DNA from: a virus
Reading direction: 5' to 3' (one strand)
IMG/VR virus record: IMGVR_UViG_3300032242_002232
Coordinates: 35,214 to 99,213 of that record
Length of the DNA stretch: 64,000 bases
Each line of letters starts with the position of its first letter. Positions within the stretch are counted from its first letter, which is position 1. The position numbers and the translations under genes are program-made. Shown here one piece after another: positions 35,101 through 41,562 of this stretch. Below the pieces are notes generated by a model, which saw nothing but the letters and a program-made list of their open reading frames with translations, made no database searches and had not been told where the DNA came from.

Positions 35101-35925
35101 TGGGGATCATCTTCAGCATCACTTACATACCCAGGCCGTGGAAACGGTGGCGGTGGTAAGGGCGGCGGAACATATATCGCTGACGAATACAACAACCAGT
35201 ACTACTTTGCTCGTGGCCTTGATGCTACACCTAACACCGGTGGTGGCGGAGGTGGTGGCGGTTCTCTACAGAACAACTCACCATTTGCACTTATCACACA
35301 TACAGCCGCAGCAAATACTATTAACTTCGAAAACTGGAATCAGGATAACTACAAGATGGTGGGATTGTATAACGCAACCCCTATCCAGTCTTCTGGTGCA
35401 GCCATTGCTGCTGGTACCTATGGTATGCAGGTAACGATTGGTGACAATGGTTCAGCTAAGGTTGTAACTGCTTGGCAGGAATTCCCAATCCTTCCTCGTA
35501 CAGTTCTCTACTTCCCAGTTGTAGCGTTCCAACTAGCAACAGCACCTCAGGGTGTTACAAACGCTACTCTCTTCCCAGGATTGTCAAAGCGTGTTCGCCC
35601 AACAGTTCGTTGGAAGGATGCAACTAACACAATCATCCGTGAAGATCGCCCAGCATATGATGCAATCTTTACAGCACTATCAACAACTACCTACCTTGGA
35701 CCTACAGCAGGTTACGCACAGTCTGGTGGTTGGGCAACATTAGCGGCTCCTGCAAACGCTTACTTCTTCGACCTAACATATGAATTCGATTACTTTGATG
35801 GTGGTGACGTTGTTTACGTAGACAACGCGGCAGCTGCTGTCCAGTACCTTGGATACATTGGTCAAGGCGGTAACGGTGCTGACGGTTATGCTATCGTTCG
35901 TTACTTCGACAAGACTTCACTCTAA
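32179..35925 (+). CDS. Glycine-rich tail fibre/receptor-binding protein
   Basis: FTASGTWTAPSGVT....LVGAGGGGG; GGGGG blocks; ends GGNGADGYAIVRY; CBM-like inserts. Confidence 0.8.
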   Translation: MAISAYKDVIVFPNDNSGRVNIKEQAFTASGTWTAPSGVTAAQIILVGAGGGGGGGSTNVAGGGGGGGQVTVINYPVTPGTAYQVNIGAGGLGGQSSITSATDVLSTLPGANGGTTSFGSTTVWNYLTNPDFDYNTLGWDPEVTFRFVTGVSGASTVQVFPNAAGLINGMYVLGTNLGSNTQITAISGNILTLSVINAGAVNTVVRFDGGNSQLAPANTTVNAISAPGVDAITGVNTFAVNSAGSPYTNTMTGTTQPQILSNNLMPARLAQLEDPQLVSGTYISSQGTNAATISITAAGLPAKINNEMIGAVTTTASATNGATTITVTNAFGIYANMFITAPSGIATGTYVLAVNGTSITLSTGTTGVLSGSTVYFSYNPSLGLNALLATTGAAVSTANPSWLLFSTLTNTSTTGSSSYVGGYQGIPWIPGQTYTVSAYVSSNLNISTSTPILFQLRSAGWSYMAAVNVNYLGGTGTYTPNTNTIDAGTTNGFFVRQSTAAAMTGYGASITSTATGSSGSTQFVVTNAAGVYVGMQITAVGVTVGTTVTSITGSTGSQTVTMSAVSTAALTNTSVTFSMPSGVQVLGSTVTTGQTGWRRIYATITTPSISATSATATNNIYGLGSTPQFIYPAIVLQQANTSFWFDNLQVELGSVPTTWQPPVYQQIPSLSVQSNANNSTDLESAHRPVRITANSTYSGSMYVTALGTTPYYQPVTAFIEWMDVDYNVLSRSTGSNNFLPLLPQQTATVQAPNTTYPVRIGVSATAPATAVFARLGFSVYQGTKGATTAIQYNMFYPVLELGSNVFTQPKRPDGINYFWAGQPGASALISSWALAAEGGGGGGTYNSANTHWQYGLEGGNNGGHAANNSYSTLTLAGGGGGSFSVGMPGQAWGQTTNASTSSQVGTNTGSTAGIYSHTFPVRGNLGGFSHIDNGGNASYLSAQGGDGGLGQLISGLTSGSPLGLTLGGGGGGAGWGSSSASLTYPGRGNGGGGKGGGTYIADEYNNQYYFARGLDATPNTGGGGGGGGSLQNNSPFALITHTAAANTINFENWNQDNYKMVGLYNATPIQSSGAAIAAGTYGMQVTIGDNGSAKVVTAWQEFPILPRTVLYFPVVAFQLATAPQGVTNATLFPGLSKRVRPTVRWKDATNTIIREDRPAYDAIFTALSTTTYLGPTAGYAQSGGWATLAAPANAYFFDLTYEFDYFDGGDVVYVDNAAAAVQYLGYIGQGGNGADGYAIVRYFDKTSL

Positions 35926-39026: not shown

Positions 39027-39371
39027 ATGGCTACAGCCAACTATTCGATTCTAGGTCAGGCGCAACCAGTAGGGTCAAATATTGATCTATTTGCTTGTCC
39101 CGCTGCTACTCAGGCGGTCCTATCAACAATCGTAGTAAGTAACACTACCGCTACCTCAGCTACAGCTACAGTATATGTACGCAAGGCTACCGGTACCTCT
39201 CCGGCGGCGGCTGGAACAAATAACGCTATTATGTACGCAGCGCCAATCTCAGCAAACAGTCTTCAAACCCTAACGATTGGCATCACATTGGGTGCCTATG
39301 ATACTATTACTGTATCTTCCGGAACGTCCGGAGCTATTACATTTCACGCATTCGGAACAACGGTGGCATAA
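39027..39371 (+). CDS. Small beta-sandwich fibre adaptor
   Basis: MAT..Y.ILGQ..P; V.STIVV.N; I.AN...TLTIGITL...D.I.V; F.AFG. Confidence 0.65.
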   Translation: MATANYSILGQAQPVGSNIDLFACPAATQAVLSTIVVSNTTATSATATVYVRKATGTSPAAAGTNNAIMYAAPISANSLQTLTIGITLGAYDTITVSSGTSGAITFHAFGTTVA

Positions 39372-39574
39372 TGTCAAAACGACAATTTCCAGAACCTTCT
39401 GCAACTGACTACGTATTAGAGTCAACATCTAACATCAAGGAAGACCGCACTGCTACAAAAGTGGTTTCTCCTACAACTGTTACTACCGGCGCTCTTCGTA
39501 ACATCTATGCTTCCACTAATGCGCCCGTTGCTAGCGATGGCGCTGATGGAGACATCTGGCTTAAGTACGTGTAA
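39371..39574 (+). CDS. Small fibre linker protein
   Basis: RNIY.ST.AP...G.DGDIW.KY. Confidence 0.65.
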   Translation: MSKRQFPEPSATDYVLESTSNIKEDRTATKVVSPTTVTTGALRNIYASTNAPVASDGADGDIWLKYV

Positions 39575-39577
39575 GCA

Positions 39578-40960
39578 ATGGCTGAGTACATCAAGCAGGG
39601 CGGTACTTGGAAGCAAGTATCCGATGATACTACATCTAGCACAGTAGCTTACATTAAGGTAGGTGGTGTTTGGCGCGGAGTAAACGCGCAGTACATTAAA
39701 GTAGCGGGAACTTGGCGAGCAGTTTCTGCGTTTGCGGCAACATATACAGTCCCTAACGTTGTAGGTTTAGATCTAGCCTCAGCACAGGCCATTATCACCA
39801 GTTCAGGAAACGCGGTAGGTTCTACATCAACTACTGCTTCTGGAGCGACTTCTGGAAACAACGGACAAGTTCAATCACAGTCCGTAGCTGCAGGCACGTA
39901 TAGCTCTGCTCAAACCATTAACCTAGTAACATATGCGTACTCTGCACCGATTATTAATCAGATTATTTCTGTAGGTGTTATTGCTACCCCTGCACAGCAA
40001 GACTCTATATCTAGCTATGATACCGCTGGCTACATCGGAGATACGTTACATATTTATGGTAATTTTACTAAGAGCATTACTAACATTACTGTTGGCGGTA
40101 CGTATGTAAGCTACAGTCAAACCTCGTCGAGTATATCTTGGACTATGCCAAGTATTTCTGCTGGTTCTTACAGCGTCCAGGTCTTCGATGGTCAAGTACC
40201 TCTTTTATCTGCTTTTACGGTAACTAACTACGGTACACGCCCATCAATTCAGATTGCTTTTAATCCTATTCAGATCCAGGTACCTCAGATTCAGATTGCG
40301 TTTAATCCTATTCAGATTAACTTTAATCCCATCCAGATCCAGGTACCTAATGTTAACTTTGTTACTGTTTTAGTTGGTGCAACAACAATTATTCAAATTA
40401 GATCTTCACAAGTTCAAAATATCTTCTACCACTCCTACTATATTAGCCCTTACTACGGTGTACGAGTAAGCTGTATTCACGGAGATACCTTTATGAAAGT
40501 ATATGAGGGAGACACGATTACAACTAAAAAGGCTAGAGATATTGAGCCTGGCGATGAGTTAGTTGGTGTGGTGTTTAAGGAACTTGACCCTAGTGTTAAG
40601 GTAAATACCTATGACTGGCAGGCCACAAGCCTTACCTACGATACTCTTGAAAAGACTACTGTTGTTAAAGTTGAGCCGTCAGTCCATGAACGCTTCATGT
40701 ACTTTAACGATGACGAGACTTCAGTATTTTCTATGTCAGAGCCTATGCTTGTAGGGCGAAACGGTCAATACGAGTTCTTTGCTTCTGGTATGATTCTGGA
40801 AGGCGATACTCTTTACAAGCTTAAATCAGACCACTCTGGTTATGAAGAGGTACTCGTAGAAAAGATTACATTTACTAGAGGAGAGGATGACGGGTTTAAT
40901 TTCCACTGCGAACCTGATCACGTTATCGTAGCTGGGGATTACATCGTTCACAATAAGTAA
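39578..40960 (+). CDS. Fibre protein: PASTA + IPT/Ig + IQ-repeat + C-terminal Hint (intein-like) domain
   Basis: YIK.GG.W repeats, VPNVVGL (PASTA), GD.L.I.G.F (IPT), S/CIHGDT at Cys299, GD.L, terminal IVHN-K-stop. Confidence 0.85.
   Translation: MAEYIKQGGTWKQVSDDTTSSTVAYIKVGGVWRGVNAQYIKVAGTWRAVSAFAATYTVPNVVGLDLASAQAIITSSGNAVGSTSTTASGATSGNNGQVQSQSVAAGTYSSAQTINLVTYAYSAPIINQIISVGVIATPAQQDSISSYDTAGYIGDTLHIYGNFTKSITNITVGGTYVSYSQTSSSISWTMPSISAGSYSVQVFDGQVPLLSAFTVTNYGTRPSIQIAFNPIQIQVPQIQIAFNPIQINFNPIQIQVPNVNFVTVLVGATTIIQIRSSQVQNIFYHSYYISPYYGVRVSCIHGDTFMKVYEGDTITTKKARDIEPGDELVGVVFKELDPSVKVNTYDWQATSLTYDTLEKTTVVKVEPSVHERFMYFNDDETSVFSMSEPMLVGRNGQYEFFASGMILEGDTLYKLKSDHSGYEEVLVEKITFTRGEDDGFNFHCEPDHVIVAGDYIVHNK
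40247..40360 (+). repeat. Coding tandem repeat IQIAFNP/IQIQVP
   Basis: IQIAFNPIQIQVPQIQIAFNPIQINFNPIQIQVPNVNF; recurring attcagat and tttaatcc units. Confidence 0.8.
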
Positions 40961-41562
40961 TGACATACTCAAGGGCAGAAGAGTTACTACCGGGTGTTAA
41001 AGCCTATTACGATGTTTGGCCAGAGTCCCAGGACTTCATAAAAAAACTAGAGCTTGACTCTGAAAAAGGTCTTGCTTGGGTTCCTGCAGCTATAAATAAA
41101 GAGGGCAAAGGCCCAGTAGTAGACACCCAAATTAGGGTTTTAGATGTCCTTAGCATAACTAGGTTTGAATCTGGGTTGAATACTGATAGGCCTTTAGTTG
41201 AGGCGGCTTACGACGCTTACACAAAACTGTCTTCAAACTTAGACCCAATTGTTGATGAGTATGTTAAAGAGTTCAGCGTAGCGGTGACCTCCAAAGAGCC
41301 TTACCAAATACTTAGGTATAAGGAGAGTAACTTCTTTAGATATCACGTAGATGACTCCCCAAATAGGCCTAGACGATTGTCCTATTGCTATTATGTAAAT
41401 GACGATTACGAGGGCGGTGAGCTTCACTTTGGAAAATTTGATAAGACCATTAAACCCGAAGCCGGGCAGCTAGTCGTATTTCCATCCAACTATCTGTATG
41501 CTCATGCCGCTAGACCAATACTAAACGGAACAAAATATGTGGTGTCATCATGGTGGAATTAA
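40960..41562 (+). CDS. 2OG-Fe(II) oxygenase, prolyl-4-hydroxylase-like
   Basis: ILRY...F..HVD, Y.NDDYEGGEL.F, FPSN..Y.H...P...G.KY. Confidence 0.9.
   Translation: MTYSRAEELLPGVKAYYDVWPESQDFIKKLELDSEKGLAWVPAAINKEGKGPVVDTQIRVLDVLSITRFESGLNTDRPLVEAAYDAYTKLSSNLDPIVDEYVKEFSVAVTSKEPYQILRYKESNFFRYHVDDSPNRPRRLSYCYYVNDDYEGGELHFGKFDKTIKPEAGQLVVFPSNYLYAHAARPILNGTKYVVSSWWN

Follow-up and report, generated by a model that had tools for sequence, protein, structure and literature searches.

The window analysed here, 64,000 nucleotides of the IMG/VR virus record IMGVR_UViG_3300032242_002232 (positions 35,214 to 99,213; the record is a complete phage genome of 99,213 bp), contains a single-copy gene for a tail-fibre-like protein of 460 residues that ends in a predicted Hint domain. 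We infer that the C-terminal 162 residues form a catalytically competent Hint module of the type A bacterial intein-like (BIL) kind, located at the distal end of a modular fibre. Its main outcome would be plain N-terminal autocleavage, to which we assign a probability of about 0.6, so that a type A BIL-like, single-turnover module is shed from the fibre. The features on which this reading depends are listed below, with positions in the window:

39578..40960, + strand: whole gene, stop codon included, encoding the 460-residue tail-fibre-like precursor (P0001); from the list of open reading frames and the translation.
40472..40954, + strand: residues 299-459, Hint (intein/BIL-like) domain of 161 residues, Cys299 to Asn459; from AlphaFold2 (AF2), Foldseek, VIA-align and profile comparison.
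40472..40474, + strand: Cys299 (TGT), predicted position-1 nucleophile, with the predicted scissile bond Ser298/Cys299; aligns with intein residue 1.
40730..40741, + strand: Ser385-Met-Ser-Glu388, block B, with Glu replacing the canonical His; from alignments to 2LWY and the PolII intein.
40949..40960, + strand: His458-Asn459 (block G), Lys460 as the only C-extein residue, and TAA; read from the sequence.

The motifs that the initial annotation had pointed out, a Cys299-IHGDT start, GD.L motifs and a His-Asn-Lys-stop end, are all found in the translation. Ser298 (AGC, 40469-71) stands immediately before Cys299 (TGT), which is followed by IHGDT. The GD.L/V turns are GDELVGV at residues 325-331 and GDTLYKL at 409-415. 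Block B continues with Pro389 after Glu388 (SMSEP, 40730-40744), and the protein ends in I-V-H458-N459-K460-TAA, with a single Lys after Asn459.

A Hint fold had been proposed for this region, and profile and structure comparisons now support it. Pfam and PHROGs gave no match for the C-terminal part of the window protein, a PASTA domain being the only Pfam domain found. With the single sequence as query against PDB sequences, phmmer returned a weak end-to-end match to the Pyrococcus PolII mini-intein (E 0.02), in which HPVLV of the intein falls on Glu388-PMLV. A HMMER search that covered 1.84 billion cluster representatives (cut-off E ≤ 1e-3) matched 103 proteins; P0008, P0089 and P0103 were excluded as artefacts, in which weak matches to unrelated repeat proteins had been summed. 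The family profile and the domain model were built from a 55-sequence alignment (A2), which is diverse and has no conserved stretch of 7-10 columns. Against the PDB this profile matched the Clostridium thermocellum BIL domain 2LWY best (E 1.6e-8), and inteins at E 5e-8 to 1e-6 (KlbA 4.8e-8; RadA and PolII 2e-7 to 7e-7). The profile alignment to 2LWY puts T..H-P of block B on S385..E388-P389 and, together with the PolII alignment, bears out the earlier observation that the block-B TxxH is replaced by SMSEP, that is by SxxE.

The AF2 model of the domain has a mean predicted local distance difference test score (pLDDT) of 96.2 and a predicted template modelling score (pTM) of 0.90. Foldseek matched it with probability 1.00 to more than 50 structures in total, including BIL2 of Tetrahymena BUBL1, the C. 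thermocellum BIL, Hedgehog HhC and many inteins. The VIA-align 2 matches have Z scores of 14-17.7 with 130-144 residues aligned and span model residues 1-166; the best of them reach Z 17-17.7 at a root mean square deviation (rmsd) of ~2 Å over ~135 residues. When superposed, the first residue of the inteins coincides with Cys299 (residue 5 of the model) and their terminal Asn with Asn459 (residue 165); Lys460 takes the place of the +1 residue in those intein structures that were solved with exteins. PF14890 (Intein_splicing) was matched by 34 of the 55 relatives in the alignment, and PF07591 by a few. Both marks of the Hint superfamily, a horseshoe-like all-beta fold with its termini together and profile homology, were found. 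Because profile homology, the AF2 model, Foldseek and the boundary-to-boundary VIA-align matches all point the same way, we regard the assignment of the 161 residues from Cys299 to Asn459 as a Hint domain with exact intein boundaries as settled at the level of a predicted structure. The resemblance to Hedgehog and BIL proteins noted at the outset holds as well, as the best fold and profile matches are BIL domains and HhC aligns with Z 17.1.

Type A BILs are defined by an N-terminal Cys, a C-terminal His-Asn and the lack of a +1 nucleophile (PMC4031507). The window domain has Cys299, His458-Asn459 and Lys460, and judged by these residues it fits this operational definition. The lead of type A BILs over inteins is small, 2LWY being marginally ahead in the profile comparison (1.6e-8 vs. 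4.8e-8) and structural Z scores lying within 1 unit. Of the hallmarks of a canonical class 1 intein, the position-1 Cys/Ser is present (Cys299), but Thr-x-x-His in block B, Cys/Ser/Thr at +1, joined exteins, a conserved insertion site and an endonuclease are all missing. As the +1 nucleophile is absent (Lys460 is followed by the stop), canonical four-step splicing is excluded, in agreement with the initial annotation. A class 3 intein mechanism via Cys444 was rejected too: class 3 inteins have no position-1 nucleophile and use a Trp-Cys(F:4)-Thr triad, while Cys1 is present here and Cys444, near block F, is only 32% conserved in the family and otherwise Ala or Val.

The C-extein does not continue beyond the stop codon. 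The ATG of the next gene overlaps the stop (TAATG), but it lies in a different frame and has TAA directly upstream; therefore, there is no hidden C-extein. Frameshifting or readthrough into this downstream 2-oxoglutarate (2OG) oxygenase gene was rejected because of the in-frame TAA before its ATG, and relatives that have other downstream genes show identical ends. It is barely credible that the domain is the decayed remnant of a mobile intein with a truncated C-extein. Intein-like blocks A, B, F and G are present and relatives in cultured jumbo phages carry Thr at +1 in a 10-residue C-extein, but the domain, of 161 residues, contains no homing endonuclease, it is always terminal, behind unrelated N-exteins in ~100 clusters, and it shows strong purifying selection together with a conserved Lys end.

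The Hint-ended design recurs in ~100 phage protein clusters (50% identity). Conservation was counted in a domain alignment of 101 non-redundant representatives, 65 of which cover position 1. This position is Cys in 60 of the 65; the five other members form one clade, have Ser/Thr at position 1 or 2 and all keep T-x-x-H (5/5). The first block-B residue is Ser/Thr in 99/101. The fourth is Gln in 52, His in 36 and Glu in 13 of the 101 and never any other residue, and it switches at least 15 times on the family tree. A position that accepts H, Q and E alone is therefore constrained to hydrogen-bonding side chains, and an imidazole is not needed. His-Asn ends the domain in 89/101, and all five full-length members that lost His or Asn retain Cys1 (5/5). 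Asn377 (40706-40708), in a YFN motif eleven residues before block B, is Asn in 98/101 and absent from inteins, and a Pro/Phe/Tyr-rich linker precedes Cys1 in most members. Family members are 25-40% identical, yet they share Cys1, His-Asn and the H/Q/E block B. Judging from the alignment, purifying selection acts on the catalytic positions of the family, and the conservation of Cys1 and His-Asn throughout the family suggests that the chemistry has been retained. With the window gene as query, blastn and tblastn gave no match in the phage collection; relatives in this collection surfaced only with other family members as queries.

Some of these counts could also be read as loss of autoprocessing, which would leave an inactive Hint fold as a permanent distal knob, for example as a binding or folding module. 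In 65% of the family another residue stands in for the block-B His, the Asp of block F is not conserved, Cys1 is lacking in 5/65 members and His-Asn in 12/101, and Pfam does not recognise the domain of the window protein. However, the maintenance of Cys1, His-Asn and an H/Q/E block B at 25-40% identity would be unexpected for a purely structural domain. Receptor-binding tips are usually variable, whereas the Hint domain is the most conserved part of these proteins. We therefore consider an inactive domain unlikely.

The terminal Lys appears to be more than the mere leftover that the initial annotation had made of it. Lys or Arg occupies +1 or +2 in 88/89 members, which places it among the best-conserved features of the family, and Cys/Ser/Thr stands at +1 in just 2/89. 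In the family representatives the Hint domain invariably ends 0-19 residues from the protein end: Asn is followed by Lys-stop in 42 members, by 2-6 residues in 40 and by 13-19 residues in 7. Members without Asn or His-Asn still retain the Lys (HDK, HTK, ASK, YNK). The HNK-stop and HNxK... forms are largely two clades on the family tree, and one subclade has a conserved C-extein of 13-19 residues, KGxFQGPTxxD. In the DNA of relatives the Lys codons AAG and AAA and the stops TAA and TAG all occur; the constraint therefore acts on the protein.

A conserved Lys in the C-extein raises the possibility, distinct though doubtful, of a splice in which this Lys resolves the Cys299 thioester. The Hint domain would leave and the fibre would end in ...VRVS-Lys, a gain of 128 Da. 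This could proceed by direct attack of the epsilon-amine, or by attack of the alpha-amine after cyclisation of Asn459 as proposed for type A BILs, and in relatives the fibre would gain short xK(aromatic) or KGxFQGPT peptides. Such capture is favoured by the 88/89 count, by the persistence of Lys where Asn is lost and by the conserved C-extein of the one subclade, which suggests that the C-extein matters. Further support comes from His-Asn, which is kept though unnecessary for N-cleavage, from the superposition of Lys460 on the +1 residue of extein-bearing intein structures, and from aminolysis precedents in BILs and BUBL. However, a lysine set free by Asn cyclisation would be lost by diffusion, at neutral pH the epsilon-amine carries a proton, and the gain from one added residue is unclear. 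Moreover, one clade has Lys at +1 and the other at +2, and this is easier to reconcile with an electrostatic role than with a nucleophile in an exact position. It is also doubtful that the family is a natural 'lysine-resolving' Hint system, in which the C-extein Lys or an outside amine, for instance that of a peptidoglycan stem peptide to which the PASTA domain has bound, attacks the Cys299 thioester and the fibre C-terminus becomes amide- or isopeptide-linked. If true, a lysine-resolving Hint domain would be a one-shot, ATP-free ligase within a virion protein and the viral counterpart of sortase/BUBL chemistry.

For plain N-terminal autocleavage, the reading we prefer, the steps would be as follows. 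Hint domains of this kind perform an N-S acyl shift at residue 1. Once the protein has folded or been assembled, Cys299 would attack the Ser298 carbonyl in such a shift and form a thioester, with Glu388 (Gln or His in relatives) polarising the scissile bond through hydrogen bonding and not acting as a base. Resolution of the thioester would let the 18-kDa Hint module leave, and the mature fibre would comprise residues 1-298 (~31.6 kDa), ending in a hypervariable repeat and an aromatic tip. The His-Asn-Lys end would participate in one of two ways: the Lys amine takes the acyl group in the manner of type A BILs or BUBL, which leaves one Lys on the fibre, or the Lys aids the N-terminal reaction. 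The conserved Lys may be an acyl acceptor. The Hint domain would serve as a single-use, removable C-terminal module that solubilises or caps the tip, a job comparable to that of the S74 intramolecular chaperone.

Precedents for several of these steps are available. Type A BILs, likewise devoid of a +1 nucleophile, yield cleavage products for the most part, but they are also able to ligate by way of the free amine that Asn cyclisation liberates (PMC4031507). BIL2 of Tetrahymena hands its thioester to the epsilon-amine of a Lys (PMC8616854). In the Tko CDC21-1 intein, which has no block-B His, a Lys activates instead (PMC4031507).

Four points weigh against autocleavage as the main outcome. Firstly, the block-B His, called the most conserved residue of inteins (PMC4031507), is Glu388 here. 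Secondly, the position of the block-F Asp is Asn441, and it is variable across the family. Thirdly, domains that carry out N-cleavage only (Hedgehog HhC and type B BILs) need neither His-Asn nor Lys, and simple shedding therefore leaves the conservation pattern partly unexplained. Lastly, Hint domains are normally monomeric, and none is known to chaperone the trimerisation of a fibre.

The position of the domain in the protein also bears on its function. The part before Cys299 is built from the following segments:

39578..39742, + strand: residues 1-55, three YIKxGGxWRxV repeats, probable virion-attachment (anchor) module; repeats read in the translation.
39743..39943, + strand: residues 56-122, PASTA domain; Pfam PF03793, E 8.7e-7, above cut-off.
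39998..40237, + strand: residues 141-220, all-beta immunoglobulin-like (Ig-like) domain, assigned to no family; from beta strands with pLDDT 72-83 in the AF2 model of the whole protein.
40238..40471, + strand: residues 221-298, hypervariable IQIAFNP repeat segment with aromatic linker, YHSYYISPYYGVRVS; from the tandem repeat and homologue identity.

The full-length AF2 run (7-sequence alignment, overall pLDDT 49) is usable only for the PASTA part, which has pLDDT 81-91, and the Ig-like part. A 21-nt tandem repeat of 4.4 copies (40247-40338) encodes the IQIAFNP-type units, the copy number and sequence of which differ among close homologues. Across six close homologues identity is 90-92% in the Hint part, 73-82% in the anchor, 78-81% in PASTA, 48-88% in the Ig-like domain and 56-68% in the repeat/linker; the Hint part is the best conserved and the adjoining repeat/linker the least conserved. 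A highly conserved module that follows the most variable segment is more in keeping with a removable device for processing or capping than with a knob for receptor binding. If the Hint domain is shed, the IQIAFNP repeat and linker would become the mature C-terminal tip.

The initial annotation had further suggested that the thioester might serve to join the fibre C-terminus to a small molecule, lipid or host surface. This found no support. The protein ends one residue after Asn459 and hence has no adduct domain of the sterol-recognition type. Very improbable, in our view, is also a spring-loaded covalent adhesin or cross-linker, for which the precursor would have to stay intact on the virion until an outside amine or hydroxyl resolves a latent thioester. 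The proposed acceptor is either a peptidoglycan stem-peptide amine near the site bound by PASTA or the Lys of a different virion protein, and the ligation would resemble that by sortase or Hedgehog. PASTA is a muropeptide-binding module and occurs in the window protein and in 9/55 relatives, and Hint thioesters pass to cholesterol in Hedgehog and to a protein Lys in BIL2. However, an adduct-recognition domain is absent, the Hint domain is the most conserved region and not a variable host-facing one, and the N-exteins of the family are highly diverse and mostly without PASTA. A latent thioester would also need to survive for long on free virions, and nothing points to a specific acceptor.

The N-terminal end of the fibre has relatives of its own. 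phrog_25859 matches the YIKxGGxWRxV repeat module (E 7e-6), and the N-terminal 49 residues with the three repeats recur at 55% identity in other phages (L003-L006; for example L003 693-1718 and L005 6001-7026). Their other carrier is a 341-residue, TPVAP-repeat, Cys-rich protein with an unrelated distal part and no Hint domain. A locus search with alignment A1 returned only proteins that share these 49 residues. In sequence, the N-terminal repeats look like an exchangeable virion-anchor module on a swappable fibre. Directly upstream of the fibre gene lies an open reading frame for 67 residues (39371-39574), the product of which ends in ...GDIWLKYV, a sequence that resembles the YIKxGGxW repeat of the fibre. 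L021 and L003-L006 contain homologues of it, there too immediately before the related genes, and its product may be a partner or adaptor of the fibre.

The gene is part of a structural operon, after virion structural and Gly-rich fibre-like genes and before a block of modifying enzymes. In longer relatives the N-exteins are of tail-fibre type (collagen, central fibre J, minor tail, fn3, PASTA and Gly-rich). In an unrelated 81-kb phage contig the Hint-ended gene directly follows tail-fibre and minor-tail genes. Phage NCTB (L001) has three Hint-ended genes, BN7874_136, BN7874_135 and BN7874_132, amid tail-fibre genes, one of which is annotated 'putative phage tail protein, contains intein domain'. 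In cultured jumbo phages of Erwinia, Dickeya and Yersinia the Hint domain ends a collagen-like 'virion structural / tail fiber' protein (Dickeya phage vB_DsoM_AD1 gp108 at L022 4017-5456; Erwinia phage pEa_SNUABM_5 gp108 at L023 3020-4453). Block B reads THEH in these copies, and behind His-Asn they have a C-extein of 10 residues, the first of which is Thr; with Thr at +1, true splicing is therefore possible there. The nearest ESM Atlas clusters are all viral, and BFVD contains close structural twins in uncultured Caudovirales. One IMG/VR contig of 102,686 bp carries two different Hint-ended genes ~10 kb apart (L012 7001-8233 and L017 6737-7624).

A 2OG-Fe(II) oxygenase gene directly follows the Hint-ended gene in the window (40960-41562) and in three other phage loci (L021 6006-6605, with 49% identity; L020 925-1497; L017 8266-8874). 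At L019 2426-3704 the next genes after the Hint-ended gene encode a sulfotransferase and an Asp/Asn beta-hydroxylase. Such neighbouring modifying enzymes could have the Pro/Phe/Tyr-rich linker before Cys1 as their substrate, but 2OG oxygenases are common in these phages in general, which leaves the link tentative.

Database annotations already name 'intein domain' tail proteins. Literature searches on Hint or intein domains at phage fibre ends returned only inteins of terminases, ribonucleotide reductases and polymerases and the S74 chaperone, and no paper was found that describes or tests a terminal phage-tail Hint family. The family is widespread among uncultured phages of freshwater type and occurs also in cultured jumbo phages of Erwinia, Dickeya and Yersinia, the Dickeya and Erwinia phages named above being ready experimental systems. 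If active, the domain would be a second, chemically different self-removing C-terminal fibre module beside the S74 chaperone, and the family would provide ~100 natural Hint domains that function with Gln or Glu at the site of the 'most conserved' block-B His and that have a near-invariant Lys as a one-residue C-extein. The family is thus a natural test bed for the activation of the N-S acyl shift and for whether an amine resolves the thioester. In practical terms, active domains would be natural 161-residue, C-terminal, self-cleaving and thioester-generating tags. If they are shed, mature fibres would be ~18 kDa shorter than annotated, which matters for the prediction and engineering of receptor-binding proteins.

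Among characterised systems, type A BILs share several features with the window domain: Cys1, a terminal His-Asn, no +1 nucleophile, no endonuclease and variable host proteins of extracellular type. The C. thermocellum BIL 2LWY has the Hint fold that is predicted here (Z 17.2, rmsd 1.9 Å), and both have Asn at the block-F Asp position. However, type A BILs are internal to secreted bacterial proteins, whereas the domain studied here is terminal on a phage tail protein, with a C-extein of one residue (0-19 in relatives). The phage family further differs in its H/Q/E block B (Glu here), its near-invariant Lys and the YFN motif.

BIL2 of Tetrahymena thermophila BUBL1 (6Y75/6TMM) is the top structural match (Foldseek E 3e-7; VIA Z 17.7, rmsd 2.0 Å). 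In this Hint domain the epsilon-amine of a lysine resolves the thioester, with an isopeptide as the product (PMC8616854), which makes it a precedent for a Lys acceptor. In contrast to the phage domain, it is eukaryotic, internal and flanked by ubiquitin-like domains (identity ~12%), the Lys that serves as acceptor belongs to a folded C-extein or to a target protein, and it keeps the block-B His (H69) and is zinc-switched. Hedgehog HhC (1AT0) has the same fold (Z 17.1) and likewise stands C-terminal to the functional part of its protein. The thioester at its N-terminal Cys frees the N-terminal fragment, as the phage domain would do. Unlike the phage protein, which stops one residue after Asn, HhC has no terminal His-Asn and contains a cholesterol-recruiting sterol-recognition region.

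Peptidase S74 is comparable in function only, by analogy, as a C-terminal maturation module that removes itself by autoproteolysis. The S74 chaperone domain of endosialidase K1F and T5 pb1 has been discussed before (PMC3742443; PMC8326128). It is trimeric and helical with a Ser-Lys dyad, whereas the Hint module would be a monomeric beta domain that uses a Cys thioester. Pretoxin HINT (PF07591) is a releasing peptidase in secreted filamentous polymorphic toxins (PMC3482391). It precedes the toxin domain it releases, whereas the window domain precedes only a Lys, and toxin release of this kind was rejected, as there is no cargo downstream. Relatives with an annotation are the proteins of Phage NCTB, Dickeya AD1 (gp108) and Erwinia pEa_SNUABM_5 (gp108), in which the same family ends tail or collagen-like fibre proteins, but these keep the block-B His (TEQH, THEH) and have C-exteins of 3-10 residues. 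The combination of a terminal position on phage tail proteins, a one-residue C-extein, a near-invariant Lys and an H/Q/E block B sets the domain apart from the described Hint systems.

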